Assembly (NCBI GenBank): GCA_024679065.1
Contig: JAGIQG010000023.1
Coordinates: forward strand, 41,230,001 to 41,294,000
DNA length: 64,000 nucleotides
Source: Sphyrna mokarran
Lineage: Eukaryota
Reading direction: 5' to 3'
Shown here: positions 6,179 to 64,000 of the stretch, piece by piece
How the letters are laid out: each line of letters opens with the position of its first letter
Numbering within the stretch: position 1 is the stretch's first letter
Position numbers and translations under genes: made by a program
The notes under the pieces: generated by a model
The model's input: the letters and a program-made list of their open reading frames with translations, nothing else
The model's database searches: none
Told to the model about the DNA's origin: nothing

Positions 6179-6751
6179 AAAGCTTGTGGAATGGAGGGGT
6201 ATATAAAACTGATTTAAAATAGGGATCGTGAGCCTTGGGAGTCCCTGGGAAGTGTGTAAATAGATGATGATATTGATGTACTTGTTTTTATCCTACAGGT
6301 GCTTTGGTCCACCTTGTTGTCTAACGAGGGCATACACGCGATGGGTCGTGAGAGGACTGCTTTTGGACCTTTTTCGAGAGTATCCTACTGCTTCACATCG
6401 TTAGTGTATGCTTGACCTGGATCATCTGATAGGCAACACGACAGTGCAGTGACTATCGCTGTGCTGTGCAGATACATGGATTTGGGCCTGTGTCTGTGGG
6501 AGTTTGCGCATTCTTCCCGTGCTTGCGTGGGTTTTCTCCGGGTGCTCCGGTTTCCTCCCACATCCCAAAGATGTGCTCTTAGGATAATTGGCAAAACAAA
6601 TTCTCCCTAAATTGTCTCAAATTTGGTTTTTAATCCATAGATCTATAAACATGGACAGGGATCGCGTGCAGGAATGGGAACATCGAGGTAGCGGCATGGG
6701 CTTGTTGGGCCGAAGGGCTGTTTCCCATGCTGTTTTGTTCTTTGTTCTTTG
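6179..6751 (+). mobile_element. 5'-truncated CR1-type LINE with V-domain-bearing 3' UTR (copy A)
   Basis: Last ORF2 codons GMEGYIKLI* (stop 6215-6217), then a segment homologous to 25190-25390, V-domain about 6490-6585, gggccgaaggg tail and (ttctttg)n end. Confidence 0.8.
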
Positions 6752-17730: not shown

Positions 17731-18650
17731 ATTTTTATAAATGACCTAGATGAGGGTGTAGAGGGTTGGATTAGTAAATTTGCTGACGATACCAAAGTGG
17801 GGGGAGTTGTAGATAGCGAAGATGGATGTTACAGTTTGCAGAGGGACATAGGTTGCAGAGCTGGGCCGTGAGGTAGCAAATGGAATTCAATACGGATAAG
17901 TGTGAGGTGATTCACTTTGGTAGGAATAACAGGCATATGAAATATAGGGCTAATGGAAGGACCCTTAATAGTGTTGTCGAGCAGAGGGATCTTGGGTACA
18001 AGTACATAGCTCTTTGAAAGTTGGCACCCAGGTTGATAAAGTTGTTAAGAAGGCGTATGGTGTGTTAGCTTTTATTGGTAGAGGGATTGAATTTAGGGCC
18101 GTGAGGTTATGTTACAACTGTACAAAACTCTGGTGCGGCCGCACTTGGAGTATTGCGTACAGTTCTGGTCGCCGCATTATAAGAAAGATGTGGAAGCATT
18201 GGAAAGGGTGCAGAGGAGGTTACCAGGATGTTGCCTGGTATGGTGGGAAGGCCTTATGAGGAAAGGCTGAGGGACCTGAGGTTATTTTCATTAGAAAGAA
18301 GGTTATGCGGTGACCTAATTGAGGCGTATAAGATGATCAAGGATTGGATAGGGTGGATAGTGAGAGCCTTTTTCCTCGGATGGTGATGACCAACACGAGG
18401 GGACATAACTTTAAATTAAGAGGTGGTAGTTATAGGACGGATGTCAGAGGCAGGTTCTTTACACAGAGGGTGGTGAGGGTGTGGAATGCCCTGCCTGCAG
18501 CAGTTGTGGACTGGCCTACTTTGGGGGCATTCAAATGTTCGGTGGATAGGCATATGGATGATATTGGAATAGTTTAGGTTAGAGGGTCCACTGGCCAGCG
18601 CAACATCGAGGGCCGAAGGGCCTGTACTGCGCTGTTATGTTCTATGTTCT
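17731..18650 (+). mobile_element. Young 5'-truncated CR1/HER1-type LINE with short 3' UTR
   Basis: [24 protein letters not shown] motif through FFTQRVVRVWNALP with a few frameshifts; CpG-rich; gggccgaagggcctgt and (ttctatg)n tail. Confidence 0.93.
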
Positions 18651-19242: not shown

Positions 19243-19531
19243 ATAGAATCTTACAGAAGGAGGCCATTTAGCCCATCGAATCTTCACGGCTTTATTCTTG
19301 AAACCGCAAATATTTATCCTGCTAATCCCCCTAACATGAAAGGGCAATTTAGTGTGGCCAGTCGACTTCCACATCTTTGAACTGTGGAGGGAACCGGAGC
19401 ACCACACAGATATGGGGAAAGTATGCAAACTCCATAAGGTTAACCCAAGGCAGGAATTGAACCTGAGTCTCTGGCACTGGCACTGAGAGGCAGCAGTGCT
19501 AATCACTGTCACCGTGCCTCCCACTGTGCCA
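19243..19531 (-). mobile_element. HE1-like V-SINE
   Basis: Reverse of tRNA-like head (ggcacagtgg...agcactgctgcctc...ggttcaattcc), V-domain (ggagtttgcatactttcccc...tgctccggtt) and LINE tail. Confidence 0.85.
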
Positions 19532-23499: not shown

Positions 23500-24696
23500 G
23501 ACAATGAGACATGGCAAGAAAAGACAAAGCATGCAAACTTAACAATGTGACAGTAACTAAAGCTAGAGTTGGCAAAAGTAGAGATATGACAGAACTAAAG
23601 GCTCTGTACGTGACTGCATATAGCATTCATAACACATAGCTGAATTGTTAGCTCAAATAGAAACAATGGGTGGGATTAATTGGCCGCCAGCTCACCAAAC
23701 TGGAAAATGCCACCTGAGTTCAACGGGCCTTTGTGTGGTGGCCGCCCCTGTCTGCCCGTGCGGTGAGCAGGACAGAAAAATTCTCCATAGTATGTTTGAC
23801 TGGGTGGCCATTACAGAAGCGTGACTACTAGGTGGCACTGCTGGTACCTGAATATTAAATATTTGAGAAAATGTGATACTTTGGAAGGAGAGGAGCCTAA
23901 GAGAGAGCGATGGTATTGCTCTGTTAATTAAAGATAACATTAGCACAATAGAGCTGATGACATTATTTCTGAAGATCAGTTGTAGAAATAAAAAATGGCA
24001 AAGGGGAGAAAGTCGATTTTGGGATAATTTATAGACGTCCTACAGTGCAGTAGGGCAGGATATGCAGAAATAAATAATGGGTGTTTATGAGAAAGATGCA
24101 TCGATAATCATAAGTGATTTTAACTTCATATAGATTGGGTGACTCAGATTAGCAAGGGTAGCCTGGAAAGTGTTTGTAGAACATTTTCAGGACAATTTTT
24201 TTATAACTGCACATTCTAGAGCCAGCCAGAGGAGATTATTTTAGACATGGCAGTTGCAATTACGCAGCATTGATTAATAATCTCATTGTATTGGAACCTC
24301 TAGGTAGCAGAGATCGTAACGTGATTGCATATTGTATTCAGTTTGAGGAAGAGCAGACTGTGCTTCATCTAGCTTTGTCAACTTGTATAAAGGCAGTCAG
24401 AAGCGTTTGAAGGCATTTGGCTAAATGAACTGGGAGAATAGGTTAAGGGGTGTGTCAGTCAAAATGTAGTGGCAAACGTTTAGGGAGATGTGTTCAGCAA
24501 TGATGCATTCTAGTGAGAAAGCAAGACTATCTGAAATAGATACACCATCTGTAGCTAACTAAGGAAGTTAAAGATGATATTAAATTGAAAGATAAAGTGC
24601 ACAATTCTATAAAGATTAGTGGTCGGTCAGAAAATTGGTCAGAATTTAAGAACCAGCAAAGAATAACCAAAAAGAGGAGAAATTAGAATATGAAAG
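23500..24696 (+). mobile_element. Old CR1-type LINE, endonuclease-region fragment; resumes at about 25655-25880
   Basis: ataatcataagtgattttaacttcatatagattgg (GDFN-like motif); sequence continues after the nested younger LINE. Confidence 0.7.
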
Positions 24697-25654
24697 CAGT
24701 TGTATAGAACGTTGGTTAGGCCTCACTTGGAATACTGCGTCCAGTTCTGGCCACCGTACTATCGGAAGGATGTGGAGTCCTTGGAGAGAGTGCAGAGGAG
24801 GTTTACCAGGATGCTGCCTGGTATGGAAGGACTGTCTTATGAGGAACGATTAAATAGACTGGGGTTGTTTTCCCTTGAAAGACGTCGGCTTAGAGGGGAT
24901 CTCATAGAGGTGTATAAGATTATAAGGGGTATAGATAGAGTAAATGGAGGTAAACTTTTTCCACCTTCAGAAATGGATAGGACGAGGGGTCATGGCCTTA
25001 GGGTGAGGGGGGCTATGTATAAGACGAATATTAGAGGGCAGTTTTTCACACAAAGGGTAGTGGGGGTGTGGAATGCACTGCCGAGTAAGGTGGTGGGAGC
25101 AGGCACGCTGGGGCTGTTTAAGGGTCTCTTGGACAGCCACATGAGCGGTATGCAGATAGAGGGATATATTAGGACTGTTTAACTACGGCTTTTTTCCACA
25201 GGTAATTCGGTCCATACTTGACCAACATTGAGCATGCATTCGGCAGGTGGTGCGGGTACAGCTCTTGGATGTTGATTCATGGGTTGCCTGGTACCTCATG
25301 TCGTAAATGAGTGCTTTATGTGGACCATCTGAAGGGCACCATGACAGCTCAGAGACTATCAATGTGGCTGTGCAGACACTTGGAATTGGGCCGGTGTCTG
25401 CGGGAGTTTGCGCGTTCTCCCCGTGGTTGCGTGGATTTTCTCCGGGCGCTCCGGTTTCCTCCCACAACCCAAAAATTCGCTCTTAGGCTGATTTGGGAAA
25501 CAAATTGTCCCTATAGTGAGAGTCTTCCGTATTAGGAATAACCTAAATCTATAATAGGATAATGGAATTGCTACCATATAGTTATGACGGCGGCGCGGGC
25601 TTGTTGGGCCGAAGGGCCTGTTTCCCGTGCTGTGTTGCTCTTTAAAAAAAAAAA
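24697..25654 (+). mobile_element. Young 5'-truncated CR1-type LINE with V-domain-bearing 3' UTR (copy B), nested in an older CR1
   Basis: Uninterrupted 160-aa RT C-terminus ([16 protein letters not shown]...IEGYIRTV*), about 460-nt 3' UTR with V-domain near 25390-25490, A-tail, gaaag repeated at 24692-24696 and 25655-25659. Confidence 0.9.
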
Positions 25655-26390
25655 GAAAGATAGCTGGAAATATTAAATAGATGGGTAAGTGTTTTGACAA
25701 TTTTAAAGAATACACAGTGACCGTGAGTCCAAGCAAGACAGCATCTGGAATGAAGAATGGAAAGAAAGAAAATGGCAGATAGACAGGAAAGTGGAATTGA
25801 TGTCGCATTTGGATTAATTCTGATCTTATCAAATTGCAAACCCAGCTCAAGGGACTGAGTGGTCTACTTCTGTTTGGTTCATGTGCGTAACAAACAATAA
25901 TGATTATCCTTAGCTGCTTAACTTATAAAATGGTCATTTTCCCGAGCTCAAATAATCTGGTTGCTGCACCCTTTGAATAAGTAAATTAATTTTGGGATTG
26001 AGTGAGAAAAGACCATCTGAGCATTCGAACTTTTGGAAGTCTAGATGATTGACCAAAATTATATAAAATTTTTAAATACAATGATTTAGTATTTTTGAAA
26101 CCATATTGCCTCCCATCGAAAGAATTCACTGTGTGGTTATGGCACACAGCCAAATTTGAGAGGCCTTGGGTTCCATGTAGCTGGAAAGCAGATCATTGTA
26201 TTTTAAGTATGGCATAGTTTCTTTGCTTTTCCACCTCCATGCCAATTAGCCAACATCATTAATGCTGGCATTTACTTCTCACCCAAGTCAAAGATGTTTA
26301 TACCTATACTAAATCTAAATGAGAAATTTCTGAAGCTTATTGCAGTGCTGTTTTAAACCCAGCACAAGCTGATTTATATTATCTTTTTAG

Positions 26391-39872: not shown

Positions 39873-40225
39873 ATGAGCAGTCCTGAAAGCAGCTTGACAC
39901 CACCTCTTTCCAACAACTTGCACTCTGAGAGCGAGACTGATATAGAGGGTCTTCGGCAAGTTGAAAACCATGTGAAGATGGAAGCTTCTGATAAGACAGG
40001 GAGTTGCAGACAGTTGAGCAACACCATTAATGGAAAGTCCCCAATCCGTAATTTCGCACATCGCTCACCACGAGTAGGAGGGGACAACAGCAATAACAAA
40101 GATGAAGACCCTAATGAGGATTGGTGCGCTGTGTGTCAGAATGGAGGAGATCTACTGTGTTGTGATAAGTGTCCAAAGGTTTTCCACCTAGCATGTCATG
40201 TACCTACACTTCTCAATTTTCCTAG
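39873..40225 (+). CDS. TRIM33: TRIM33 coding exon, linker and PHD finger N-part
   Basis: branch-point-like tgctaac then atttag; donor gtaagt; 353 nt; ...[39 protein letters not shown]. Confidence 0.97.
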
Positions 40226-41341
40226 GTAAGTCTGCCCTATCCTTAACATTAGATAATAGCAGCAGCAGCGAGTTTCAGGTTTATTTCTCCTGAAATGCGC
40301 AGTAAGTAGCAATGATTTATCATATGCGAGTATAATAATTTGTTGTTCAGTTTGCCTTTAATAATATCTTTTGATGTTTGAACTTGTTCCAAATTAAACA
40401 GAAGCTTGTACAGTGGATTTTATCCATTGTATGTATACTGTTCTAAATTTAGCTGCATGATGCATGGGTCTGTAATACATTTCACACTTAATGCTGAATA
40501 TGAACTCCCAAACAAATTTGGCTTTGGGCGCAAACAACTGGATGTTTGAATGTCATTTCAGTGGCCTGTGTCATAAAGTAGCAGGTTTATTGAATATGAT
40601 TTCCTTTTCTCCTTAAAAAGGAGCACTAATTAAATAACAGTACCCTGAACAAGCAAACTTCAGCTTGTATTCACTCACTTATTCTAATTAGAGCCTCCCC
40701 AACAAAGAGAAAGCCCTATTAGCCCTCAGTGCATTGACATTGAAGTTCAGTGCCTGAATCTGGAAATACCGTATAAAGTATTATAATACAGGACAAGCAA
40801 GCACTTCTCAAATTCTGTAAAACTTGTCTCAGGGTACATTTTTTTTAAACAAGATTTAAAGCAACCTTGGGTCCTAATCAGTGATGTATGTTTTATATCA
40901 ATTTTACAAATGAATAAAATCAGTACAGAAACAGACCACTATGCACTTGACATAGGTGCAGTGGCATTGTGACAAGGAATCTAAATCATTCTGTGGATGC
41001 AGGTGTGATGTGCACATACATATTCACAATGTTCAAAAGACAGTTGGAGAAGTAATAGCAAAATCGGAAGAAGTAAAGCAAAATAAGAAATCTGAAAAAA
41101 GAGGAAGATAAAAATACACAAATGAAAAACGTGTAAAAATGGAAAAACAAAACCAGGCCTATATATAGTGCTAAAAATTGGATATGAGTAAAATGAATTA
41201 CTCAGTCCTGCACTGTAAAGTACTCGTAACTTTTGAACCTGTGGTTAATGCCATTAAAATTATTGATATGCATGTTTCTAATTTGCCTAGAGTATTTGAC
41301 GATTAAAGACTATTTTGACCCTCTTTTTGTTCCTACTTAAG

Positions 41342-44429: not shown

Positions 44430-44582
44430 GTTCCTGATTACTACAGAATTATTAAAAATCCAATGGATTTATCCAGAGTGAAAATGAAATTACAGAAAAA
44501 ACACTCTCAACATTACCAAACACCAGAGAACTTTGTGGCTGATATTAGGCTCATTTTTAAGAACTGTGAAAAGTTCAATGAA
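44430..44582 (+). CDS. TRIM33: TRIM33 coding exon, bromodomain
   Basis: tcctag / gtaagt; 153 nt; [51 protein letters not shown]. Confidence 0.97.
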
Positions 44583-44799: not shown

Positions 44800-45720
44800 A
44801 CAAAGTATAAATGAGAGTGATGTAGCAAATGTATCGATACATGGATTTTTCTCAAGGCTTTTAGTAAGTAGATTCAGGGCTAAGGAGTTAAGTCAGGGTA
44901 AGTTGCAGAGCTGTAGAACAGGGGTTAGGGTTTTACTTGGACTGGCACAAGGTGGGAACTGGTGTGACAAGGATCAGCAACTGGTTTAGAATCAGCAGTA
45001 TAATATCCAAATTCGCAGGTGTCACCAAACTGAGGAAAATACAAGATGACATCAACTTGTAAAATGAATGTTTAGATGTCAAATGAATTTTATTATAGAT
45101 AGACATGAGGTGATGCATTTTGCCAAGAAAATTAAGGGGATCAGTTATACCTAGAGTTACAAATTTGAGTTTAAAAATATCATTATAAGTAACCAGATAA
45201 AGAGCAGGGAATTGCAGTTTATTTCTCAGGAATAGAATTCAGAAACTCAGAAGGATGGCACAGTAGTCAGCATTGCTGCCCCTCAGCACCATGGACCTGG
45301 GCTCGATTCCAGCCTTGGGTGACTGCCTGTGTGGGTTTTGCATATTCTGTCTGTGTGTGCGTGGATTTCCTCCTGCTGCTCCACTTCCTTCCCTTCCCTC
45401 CACATTCCAAAGATGTGCAAGTTAGGACTATGCTAAATTGCCTAGATGTGCAGGTTTGATGGGTTAGCCATGGAAAATGTTTGGGATTACAAGGCAGGAC
45501 AGAGGGCAGGGCATGGGTAACACACTCTTGTGGAGTGTCAGTACAGACTCATACAGTGACTCAGTAGGCCAAATGGCCTCTTTCTGCACTATAGAGATTC
45601 GATAGTTTTAAGATATATTCATCTTATACGGAATCTTGTTTTGACAATGCTTGAAGTACTGTGCTCCGATCTGGTCTCTATATCACAAAAAATATACAGA
45701 ATCAGAAGGAAAAAATAGAT
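44800..45720 (+). mobile_element. Old CR1 fragment interrupted by an HE1-like SINE
   Basis: atccaaattcgcaggtgtcaccaaact (SKFADDTK-like); resumes after 45600. Confidence 0.6.
45252..45600 (+). mobile_element. HE1-like V-SINE, near full length
   Basis: tRNA-like head (tggcacagt...gggctcgattcc), V-domain, ggccaaatggcctctttctgcact tail. Confidence 0.85.
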
Positions 45721-61589: not shown

Positions 61590-62219
61590 TGTTGTGAAGT
61601 TGTATGAATAAAGTAGTGGCATGAAGGGAAAATTGGTCAAGTATTTGGTACAAAATAAGGAAAATTGACTAAGCAATTCCAAAATGCCAGATCTCTAAGA
61701 CTTGATAAGACTGACTCTGCATACTTAAAACATGAATAAGACCAGAGAAGTTTAAACTCTGCCTAACCTCTAAAACCTGAATGCTAACTTCACATGTATG
61801 AGTTAGACAAGATAAGGTATGAGATGACAAAGTCATCGGCCTTCTTTTGTTGTATCAAAAGGACAAGATAAAGGTATGAATGATGAGACAAAAGAATTTT
61901 AGGAGATCAGCAAAGAGTTTTAGGAGGTCAGCCAGTTGTATCATTATTTATGATTTTGCTTATGATGCTACTATTCATCAAATTCCTGAATAAGCACTGG
62001 TCACGCGAACTGATAATTATGTATAAATACTGAACTGATTCTTTAGGTAAGCGTAGACTTGAGAAGAAATTAGCAAGTCGTAACGACTGCTCTCAAAACT
62101 CAAGTTACTGCCAATACTGCATGCAGTCTTTTGTAAATAAAGACTAGTTATTTTGTCGGAATTGCTTTTGTTGAGTCTTGCTATCGCAGTCAAGAAGCAG
62201 GAAAATTTCCACTTCAACA
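61590..62219 (+). mobile_element. 5' LTR of an endogenous retrovirus
   Basis: TGTTGtgAAGT...ACTTCAACA near-inverted ends, internal direct repeats, TATA-like tataaata near 62023, AATAAA at 62136, followed by PBS-like TGGCACTGCGAAACAG at 62222. Confidence 0.75.
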
Positions 62220-62588
62220 TTTGGCACTGCGAAACAGAAACCAAAACCCTGGGCGAATTCTTTGAGGGACTGAAGTAATCGAGCCACAACCTGGAGGGAA
62301 GAGACAGATGCTGGCACAAGGTAAGATTCATTTTGGTCTCTCTCTCTCTCTCTCCTCCCCCCCCCGGATTGGTGCTACAACCCCTCGTCCCTGATGGAGG
62401 ACATTAATGTGGTGGTATTCGAATCTAAATTGGACTGAGAGTAGAGTGTTTAGGATCAGGGACCCCTTGGTTTAGATCTGGATCAGGGTTACACAGGCTT
62501 AGTTTGGGTCAGGGACCCTGTGATTTGATTTTGGTACCAGGAATTCTTTTTATTAATGTTCTTGCCAGGGGCACTGTATACTGATGTT

Positions 62589-63360
62589 ATGGGACAGATT
62601 TCAGACAAAATGAGGCAATTCTTTGCTTTTTGTGTGTTCTGACTATCCTGATCAGGAATTTACGTTGATTATCTCCTGCACTAAATAGTAAATTGGGTAA
62701 AGATATTTGGTTGTTAGGAGGCACATGGAACCAGGAAAATTGCACTGCAGCAGTAAAGCTATTTGGACGAAAATTCTCCCCATGCTTTCGTGGGTTTTCT
62801 CCGGGAGCTCCGGTTTCCTCCCACATCCTAAAAATGTGCTCTTAGGCTAATTGGCAAAACAAATTCTCCATAAATTGTCTCAAATTTGGTTTTTAATCCA
62901 TAGATCTATAAACATGGACAGGGATCGCGTGTAGAAGTGGGAATATCGAGGTGGCGGCACAGGCTCGTTGGGCTGAAGGGCCTGTTTCCCATGCTGTTCT
63001 TTGAAAAATGTAGGTTCCAAGTGGAAAATTTTAATTTCAAAATGGAAAAAGAGTTGACTAAGTGCCGCAAACAATTGCTATTAATGAGTTGGCGGGGTAA
63101 CGCCTGTAAAAGAGGAATTGATGAATGTGTGGGTGGGAAATCAAAGGATTGGGAAATTTAAAATTGGAATGTGAACTTTGGGGTAGGAAGCATCATGAAA
63201 TGAAACAACAGGGTGAGGATAAGAACCCATCGGGTGACTGACAGGTTTGGCTCGCCCATCAGATTAAACAACAGGAGGATCCTCCCAGTTGCCGTGGCAT
63301 GCCGCTGTTTTCTCTATTCAGGCAATTTGGAGGAAGAGGAGGAGTTGACCCCTAAACCCT
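62589..63360 (+). pseudogene. gag: ERV gag N-terminal remnant, interrupted by a LINE tail
   Basis: ATG giving MGQISDK (myristoylation-type start); WLLGGTW resembles the matrix WPxxGT motif; stops and frameshifts present. Confidence 0.55.
62774..63002 (+). mobile_element. Heavily truncated V-domain LINE tail (copy C) inserted in gag
   Basis: Closely matches 6511-6751; gaaaa repeated at 62769-62773 and 63003-63007. Confidence 0.85.
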
Positions 63361-63363
63361 CCC

Positions 63364-64000
63364 TTTCCTTGTCAATTGGCTGTTATTGAATGTGTTGCAC
63401 ATGCGAAGAGGAACACTCCTGTGCAATTAGGGAATGCCCTTGCTGATTCAGCTGCCAAGGCAGCAGCTGTATTGGCCTGTATTCAGCTGTGATCGTTCTC
63501 ACTGCAGGCAATCAGGTTCTAAATCGGGTACCTGCATTAGGGATGAAGGGCATGCCAGAGATAACTGAGGCTCAACATTTACAGAGGGACGCCTCTGATT
63601 CTGACCGCACAGTATGGAAGTCAATGGAGTGTTAGTACTCCTTGGCATATGACCTCTGGCTTACTGCAGTTGTCAAGTTTGTATTCCGGATTCATTATTG
63701 CCGGTACTTAGTGATTATTTGCATTCTTGTACTCATCTTGGCAAGGAGGTAATGGTACAGCTACTTCTAAAAACTTGGCATCTACATTTGAATACAGCAG
63801 CCCAAATGTGGCTGGATCGATGCCTTATTTGCATGTGAAATAATAATAAGGGTAAAGGATCAAATGCCCTCCTGGAATCACTCCCTTGCCAGATGGCCCT
63901 TTTGCCTGTATAGAACTTGATTTTATTGAATTACCAAAAGTACATTGCTGTAGATATTGCTTAGTAATAATTGATGTGTTTAGTAAATGAATTGAAGCCT
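63364..64000 (+). pseudogene. pol: ERV pol remnant: RNase H C-terminus and integrase N-terminus (runs off window)
   Basis: PCQLAVIECVAH...LGNALADSAAKAAA (RNase H); LHSCTHLG...RCLIC (HHCC); GPFACIELDFIELPK...YCLVIIDVFSK*IEA (integrase core); stops and frameshifts. Confidence 0.9.

Follow-up and report, generated by a model that had tools for sequence, protein, structure and literature searches.

A V-SINE front in the 3′ UTR of a CR1 LINE lineage of Sphyrna mokarran, and its probable selection

Results

V-bearing CR1 copies in the window

The stretch of DNA analyzed here (64 kb from Sphyrna mokarran, hereafter the window) contains three same-strand copies of a CR1 LINE whose 3′ UTR carries the V domain of V-SINEs, all of them lying within introns of a PHD-bromodomain gene (Table 1). 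Exons for a PHD finger and a bromodomain, which we take to resemble those of TRIM24/TRIM33-type genes, were observed at 39873-40229 and 44430-44580 on the forward strand, and the three LINE copies share the strand of the gene.

In copy 1, the final 161 codons of ORF2 are followed by a UTR of 470 nt and an A-run. An earlier note on this DNA, made from the letters alone, had described the coding part as an intact RT C-terminus of 160 amino acids; the C-terminus of ORF2 is indeed intact (161 codons, residues 829-989), but it is not RT, as the RVT_1 domain ends upstream and the piece matched no Pfam family. The ESM Atlas, queried with the same piece, returned unnamed clusters only. Similarly, of the roughly 200 nt of unique sequence said to follow the stop codon, about 150 nt form a predicted folded domain, but the final 61 nt come from a SINE head that has decayed. 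The V block itself had been named correctly: it agrees with the frog V-SINE consensus available from the supplement of PMC6887750 (window 25404-25474, matches counted by eye), and the V core is 88-93% identical to the majority of 59 free V-SINE copies of this genome.

Copy 2 shows the order of parts and the last codons that had been reported for it, though it starts at 6188 rather than 6179; its UTR is 72% identical to that of copy 1 over 474 nt (E=1e-59). What had been seen as a third tail near 62774 belongs to copy 3, and the ordinary CR1 in the window has the short end ascribed to it, with 73 nt (about 75 had been claimed) after a stop codon at 18575-18577. With regard to surroundings, copy 1 is nested in the decayed ORF2 of an older CR1 that runs in the same direction (about 23600-24696 and 25655-25900; weak tblastn match, E=0.001), and nesting in other CR1s and in SINEs was frequent among the loci that were fetched. 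Copy 3 is surrounded (about 61900-63600) by what looks, by eye, like part of an LTR element or provirus, with the end of an LTR, a primer-binding site and a leader. The target-site duplication at copy 1 is ambiguous (0-5 bp), and none was convincing in 8 full-length copies.

Table 1. Coordinates of the V-bearing LINE copies, their parts and comparison elements in the window.
Feature	Position	Strand	Evidence or remark
Copy 1 (subfamily A), entire	24697..25654	+	Open frame 24697-25179, stop 25180-25182
Copy 1: 5′-truncated ORF2, C-terminal 161 codons behind the RT domain, with stop	24697..25182	+	97.5% identity to residues 829-989 of subfamily ORF2
Copy 1: pyrimidine run and conserved 17-mer (25198-25214), complementary to the element's own 3′ hairpin and also splice-acceptor-like	25190..25214	+	12/17 positions invariant in four subfamilies
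Copy 1: predicted structured RNA domain, closing stem GGTCC/GGACC (25209-25213 with 25322-25326) enclosing a long irregular hairpin (25232-25314)	25209..25326	+	Fold z-scores, covariation
Copy 1: decayed V-SINE tRNA-derived head, A-box side kept, 18 nt including B box deleted; predicted pairing with V domain	25334..25394	+	Alignment to genome's V-SINE majority, shuffles, reciprocal HMM
Copy 1: V domain core	25395..25466	+	88% to genome's V-SINE majority; 62/71 to published frog V-SINE
Copy 1: SINE-like segment after V	25467..25515	+	64% identity to V-SINE majority
Copy 1: AT-rich variable spacer, differing by subfamily	25516..25588	+	A vs. B, 62% of aligned sites differ; subfamily E largely without spacer
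Copy 1: CR1-type tail, GC-rich stem with hairpin 25607-25618, then A-run 25644-25654	25589..25654	+	0/45 differences in all six subfamily pairs; nearest outside matches are short-UTR CR1 tails
Copy 2, subfamily B: last 9 ORF2 codons (GMEGYIKLI*), stop 6215-6217, full composite UTR, GTTCTTT repeats	6188..6751	+	95.4% to B majority over 566 nt
Copy 3, subfamily B, truncated inside V domain	62773..63008	+	92% to copy 2; 94.7% to B majority
Ordinary short-UTR CR1 (comparison, outside the V-bearing family)	17731..18650	+	ORF2 DNA 71% identical; no V
Free V-SINE with tRNA head (comparison)	45248..45603	+	
Second free V-SINE (comparison)	19254-19517	-	

The full element and its subfamilies

The full element is a young CR1 LINE of about 4.6 kb with an esterase ORF1 and an APE-RT ORF2; we take it to be a CR1 from the type of ORF1, the tail, and ORF2 motifs that we presume to be typical. 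On a long copy, ORF2 matched Exo_endo_phos (E=5e-11) and RVT_1 (E=7e-34, at 541-761 of a 981-aa frame), and ORF1 matched Lipase_GDSL_2 (E=4e-7, just below the curated cut-off) and the ORF1 protein of PDB entry 4c1b (E=6e-18). The ORF1/ORF2 junction served to pick twenty long copies, of which 14 were selected for long 5′ extent, and every one ends in a V-bearing UTR; a 989-codon ORF2 is open in seven and both frames are open in two.

A 30-letter motif at the LINE-type V end, which separates LINE-borne from free V domains, has 38,161 exact matches in the genome (control, 0). Among its first 30 matches along one contig, 25 copies reach ORF2, four end in the UTR and one in V, and an intact SINE head stands at the start of none; the seven A-like rows among them all extend at least 437 nt, beyond the stop codon. 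For each UTR type at least 40 genome matches were listed at 97-100% identity. 5′-truncated copies are numerous. One further set of contigs (X1) matched subfamily A closely; in another, from a different organism (X5), ORF2 pieces but hardly any UTR appeared at 80% likeness, which is not evidence of absence.

Clustering of 146 copies, a sample biased towards the best matches, gave subfamilies A (54 copies), E (7), B (68) and D (15) and two singletons, with mean pairwise distances within A, E, B and D of 2.5, 5.1, 4.4 and 8.3%, respectively. Subfamily A is the youngest and B the most abundant; a putative subfamily C merged into B. A midpoint-rooted tree of 10 rows and 448 columns was thinned from 81 stretches of this genome's copies and under-samples short-UTR families; in it, a branch with support 97/96 separates the V-bearing ORF2 ends from the rest, and the sister row shares the GTTCTTT repeat and sits on a long branch. 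GTTCTTT-type repeats terminate 52 of 55 B, D and E copies and an A-run 45 of 50 A copies, the hairpin being present in all. In 40 evenly spaced samples of 10 kb (400 kb), three of 36 CR1 ORF2 ends carry V, the remaining 33 having a short UTR or none, and of 62 usable V hits three are LINE-borne and 59 belong to free V-SINEs.

The junction recurs in tens of thousands of copies from four subfamilies, which is not due to chance, and it is practically certain that the composite UTR is a family-wide unit which moves with ORF2 and is subject to random 5′ truncation. The earlier proposal of a LINE lineage carrying V across at least two subfamilies is thereby borne out, with four subfamilies in one clade. 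The note had asked whether copies continue 5′ into ORF2, which they do up to the full element, and whether the junction between ORF2 and V differs between copies, which it does not in any of the four subfamilies.

Several observations on individual loci are recorded here. Ahead of the ORF1 start, the 340-nt 5′ UTR of subfamily A (L142:887-1230, oriented) carries one TATA-like and two splice-donor-like motifs; ORF1 of this subfamily has an N-terminal cysteine/histidine cluster and overlaps the open frame of ORF2. At L162 (about 1500-2200) a D-type copy is directly abutted by a B-type UTR, forming a tandem of two subfamilies, and at L015 and L009 A copies are in tandem or interrupted. L077:1496-2404 (oriented) is an internally deleted A copy in which the endonuclease region is joined to the middle of the UTR, a single case, and another A copy has as its neighbor a host membrane-protein exon with an open frame of 370 codons (L068:2397-3506, oriented). 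A non-autonomous family based on the 5′ part, hinted at by the greater number of candidates for that part, was not borne out on follow-up.

The segment before V is a SINE relic

The 61 nt preceding V are colinear with the V-SINE head of this genome save for an 18-nt gap that takes out the B box. All four subfamilies share this deletion, a 1-nt deletion and several substitutions relative to the SINE majority, and in subfamily B 15 of the 21 differences from the head are transitions. Identity between relic and head is 54-57%; the alignment score against the 78-nt head was reached by 0-19 of 5000 shuffles and that against the 48-nt front of the head by 2-127 (28-127 in three of the four scores). 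In both long elements tested, the relic scores highest of all windows, and a head HMM applied to it directly gave only E of about 1. By itself the homology to the head, as judged from these alignments, is thus modest. The reciprocal comparison is less biased: with an HMM of the UTR minus V, V-SINE heads were the three best hits outside the family in the 400-kb sample, and with four subfamilies in the model they were the five best (E from 2.7e-5 to 0.47). tRNA calling across the window called none. The tail is nearer to the tails of short-UTR CR1s (best E 4e-9) than to those of V-SINEs (E 0.046). A search for an older subfamily with a more intact head gave 549 matches at up to 2 mismatches and no exact one, and the 20 that were fetched are ordinary B and D copies.

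Because a decayed tRNA head without its B box sits directly before V, the direction of capture can be read as V-SINE to LINE, and we regard a single such event as highly probable. An active CR1 would have received the front of a V-SINE (head, V and following segment) in its UTR, ahead of its own tail, whether by insertion, by template switch or by read-through into a tail-swapped SINE, three routes that are indistinguishable here. Loss of the B box would end transcription by polymerase III, and the SINE piece would therefore now travel only inside the LINE transcript. The reverse proposal, also made in the earlier note, is that the LINE UTR was the source of V and that SINEs arose from it by gaining a tRNA head. 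There is precedent for SINE bodies derived from LINE parts, e.g., the RTE 5′ UTR in Ceph-SINEs (PMC5786205), yet here the LINE itself contains the broken tRNA head, the V-bearing lineage is a minority of CR1s, and one CR1 clade of one genome stands against V-SINEs reported from cnidarians, molluscs, insects and vertebrates in PMC4824008 and PMC5804259. An origin of V in the LINE is therefore extremely unlikely.

Predicted RNA structure of the UTR

In all four subfamilies the roughly 150 nt after the stop codon are predicted to fold into a long irregular hairpin inside the GGTCC/GGACC stem (z-scores of -2.2, -4.5, -3.4 and -4.7), and a short hairpin of 7 bp predicted beside it is lost in subfamily A. 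Across 12 real copies, both partners change in six of the domain's 35 pairs, a result equalled by 8 of 500 shuffles, and 96.7% of cells are paired, as opposed to 31-46% in slid controls; the count of further pair types was not above shuffles (368 of 500). These figures come from four related lineages and a structure derived from the same sequences, and related rows can beat all shuffles, so that the compensatory changes support the predicted domain but do not prove it. The origin of the long hairpin left no informative match in about 1.06 Mb of sequence, and a search of Rfam with the UTR gave no match at E<=5.

The relic and V are predicted to fold jointly (z from -2.5 to -4.0): in the first half of V, the start and the end both pair with the relic, and one C-G/T-G/T-A series occurs in this pairing. 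A further potential interaction links the 17-mer with the tail hairpin: 15-16 of 17 pairs are possible in all four subfamilies, and the 17-mer is the best duplex site for the tail in each, a result matched by 10, 2, 2 and 3 of 100 shuffles. In computed ensembles of the whole UTR the long-range helix has a predicted probability of 0.52 in E, 0.50 in D, 0.13 in A and about 0 in B.

Conservation relative to silent sites

ORF2 of subfamilies A and B is 81% identical over 580 amino acids, with 73 of 181 four-fold sites (0.40) different. Against this standard, differences between A and B are few in the V core (5/72; Fisher P 3e-8), the head relic (10/60; P 9e-4), the post-V segment (9/50; P 4e-3) and the tail (0/45; P 4e-9). 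The folded domain of about 150 nt, with 51 of 146 sites different (0.35), does not depart significantly from four-fold sites, and the spacer differs at 47 of 76 (0.62). In six out of six subfamily pairs, divergence in V (0.01-0.08) and in the relic (0.03-0.17) lies below that of four-fold sites (0.14-0.40). The compared sequences are family majorities, and the constraint therefore acts along the replicating lineage. We consider it likely, from these sequence comparisons, that the head relic and V are kept by selection on the RNA, in cis; recombination among subfamilies could mimic such conservation. Divergence of the hairpin domain in subfamily A equals or exceeds that of silent sites (A-E, 0.21-0.26 vs. 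0.14). Since A, the youngest subfamily, has diverged there and lost the short hairpin, the hairpin domain would not be strictly needed.

Discussion

The reading that we favor, and hold to be probable, is that copy 1 is a 5′-truncated member of a CR1 lineage with a once-captured and selected V-SINE front in its 3′ UTR, which would aid the copying of its RNA. After capture, the relic and V would have changed far more slowly than silent ORF2 sites, with the predicted head-to-V pairing kept and a separate long hairpin domain with compensatory changes adjoining the module. The most likely role of the module would be in cis and at the level of RNA, as stabilization or as presentation of the 3′ stem-loop to ORF2p; such a stem-loop is recognized by ORF2p in stringent LINEs, according to PMC4176376. 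It is from the slow change of V and relic relative to silent sites, and thus from constraint, that we infer a benefit, and for its nature stability or RNP/tail presentation appears somewhat more probable than something else.

A neutral passenger would explain the same arrangement if V had been captured once and the subfamilies had been kept alike by recombination or template switching, either among themselves or with free V-SINE RNAs. Partners for such exchange are plentiful, free V-SINEs outnumbering LINE-borne V by about 20 to 1 among the usable hits of the 400-kb sample, the fetched loci often contain copies in tandem or nested, and most CR1 families do without V. However, all four subfamilies are fixed for states specific to the LINE, the B-box deletion among them, and exchange with free SINEs is therefore not ongoing; conservation is patchy, with the fast spacer between the conserved post-V segment and tail, so that one crossover would be insufficient; and the closest pairs in V (B-D and A-E) are the same as for the ORF2 ends. 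We consider a passive V unlikely for these reasons. The complementarity of the 17-mer invites the further suggestion of a conformational switch, in which the 17-mer either hides the 3′ recognition hairpin or pairs with the upstream domain and frees the hairpin, thereby timing reverse transcription, with V and the hairpins as scaffold. The recurrence of the pairing and of the best duplex site would fit this, as would near 50:50 ensembles in E and D, with 0-4.4 kcal/mol separating the predicted folds, and weak matches (E 2-5.5) to the antisense strand of ordinary CR1 tails suggest that the 17-mer began as an inverted tail fragment. Such an origin would, on the other hand, account for the complementarity without any function. 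The computed helix is also all but missing from B, the most abundant subfamily, and a tail hairpin that is GC-rich and self-complementary finds partners easily. The four tests are not independent, and the modeled switch is improbable.

The same segment resembles a splice acceptor, and a pyrimidine run with CAG/G after the stop codon might yield an ORF-less, SINE-like RNA from the LINE. The pyrimidine tract and YAG/G are conserved in the four subfamilies and the 5′ UTR holds donor-like GTGAGT and GTAAGA motifs, but the first donor joined to the acceptor has 0 genomic matches at up to 2 mismatches, and no such joint occurs among the 15 of 28 contig matches listed. Moreover, the native context is found in 3,578 copies; A or G at -3 occurs in 13, of which eight are point variants and five truncations, a count that concerns subfamily A and reaches exons other than those ending in YAG. 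Splicing at this site is accordingly very improbable. A broader reading joins several of these elements: the LINE would have domesticated its own parasite, V being a cis RNA module that raises the retrotransposition of any carrier RNA and the UTR switching between hiding and exposing the hairpin for ORF2p. We regard this as doubtful; if true, the switch would work through an antisense copy of the element's own tail, possibly pairing also with the tails of competing CR1s and V-SINEs.

Returning to the captured and selected V-SINE front, the carrier resembles canonical chondrichthyan CR1s of the HER1 type, as presented in PMC13343379 and PMC3747384, in its esterase ORF1, APE and RT ORF2 and 5′ truncation, in the GGGCCGAAGGGCC tail hairpin, and in the terminal microsatellite of B, D and E. 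Esterase-type ORF1 is described as typical of canonical CR1, L2 and Zenon of chondrichthyans being without ORF1 (PMC13343379). Subfamily A ends in a short A-run, and the same text gives poly(A) as unique to Zenon among CR1-group elements. The 3′ UTR of 420-535 nt with SINE relic and folded domain is unlike the other sampled CR1 ends, which are well under 150 nt. With V-SINEs of sharks and rays of the HE1 type (PMC4824008 and PMC3747384) the LINE piece shares the order of tRNA head, V and following segment and the closely similar V core; unlike these, it is without a B box, has a strongly diverged head, is not free-standing, ends in a LINE-type tail and has a coding carrier. By the features that define V-SINEs, a central V of about 80 bp is present, and the head with A and B boxes and a short non-coding start at the head are absent.

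The spread of a V-SINE fragment by another mobile element has a parallel in MER6/MER6A, a mammalian Tc1/Mariner MITE presented in PMC6887750 as a dead non-autonomous DNA element without SINE head. Unlike MER6, the LINE is an autonomous retroelement with V in its RNA, where constraint can be measured against ORF2. Closer in kind is Ingi-3_AC, for which PMC5786205 suggests recombination of a SINE into a LINE UTR (a Ceph-SINE/RTE-like piece); that piece is RTE-derived, lies in the 5′ UTR of a single family, and has a direction merely suggested and no constraint shown.

To our knowledge, no function is known for the V domain, which SINEs have kept conserved over hundreds of millions of years. Such central domains were stated to be absent from LINEs in a 2016 paper, and the V-bearing CR1 lineage is a counterexample to this statement. 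Our searches of the literature, several of them poorly targeted and directed at sources other than Repbase and Dfam consensuses, returned no description of a V-bearing LINE. The 5′ motifs of subfamily A are absent from the 400 letters available of each consensus in PMC13343379, the 3′ ends of which lie beyond and may hold a V-bearing UTR. For annotation, the finding means that about 38,000 LINE ends would pass wrongly as SINEs in this genome.

In the LINE, V has stayed conserved in the absence of a working polymerase III promoter, and the conservation follows a replicating lineage and not fixed host loci, which points to a benefit for the RNA itself. With an autonomous carrier, some copies of which have open frames, a standard retrotransposition assay can be run on elements with V removed or exchanged; if the V core helps the copying of the RNA, its job would become directly testable.
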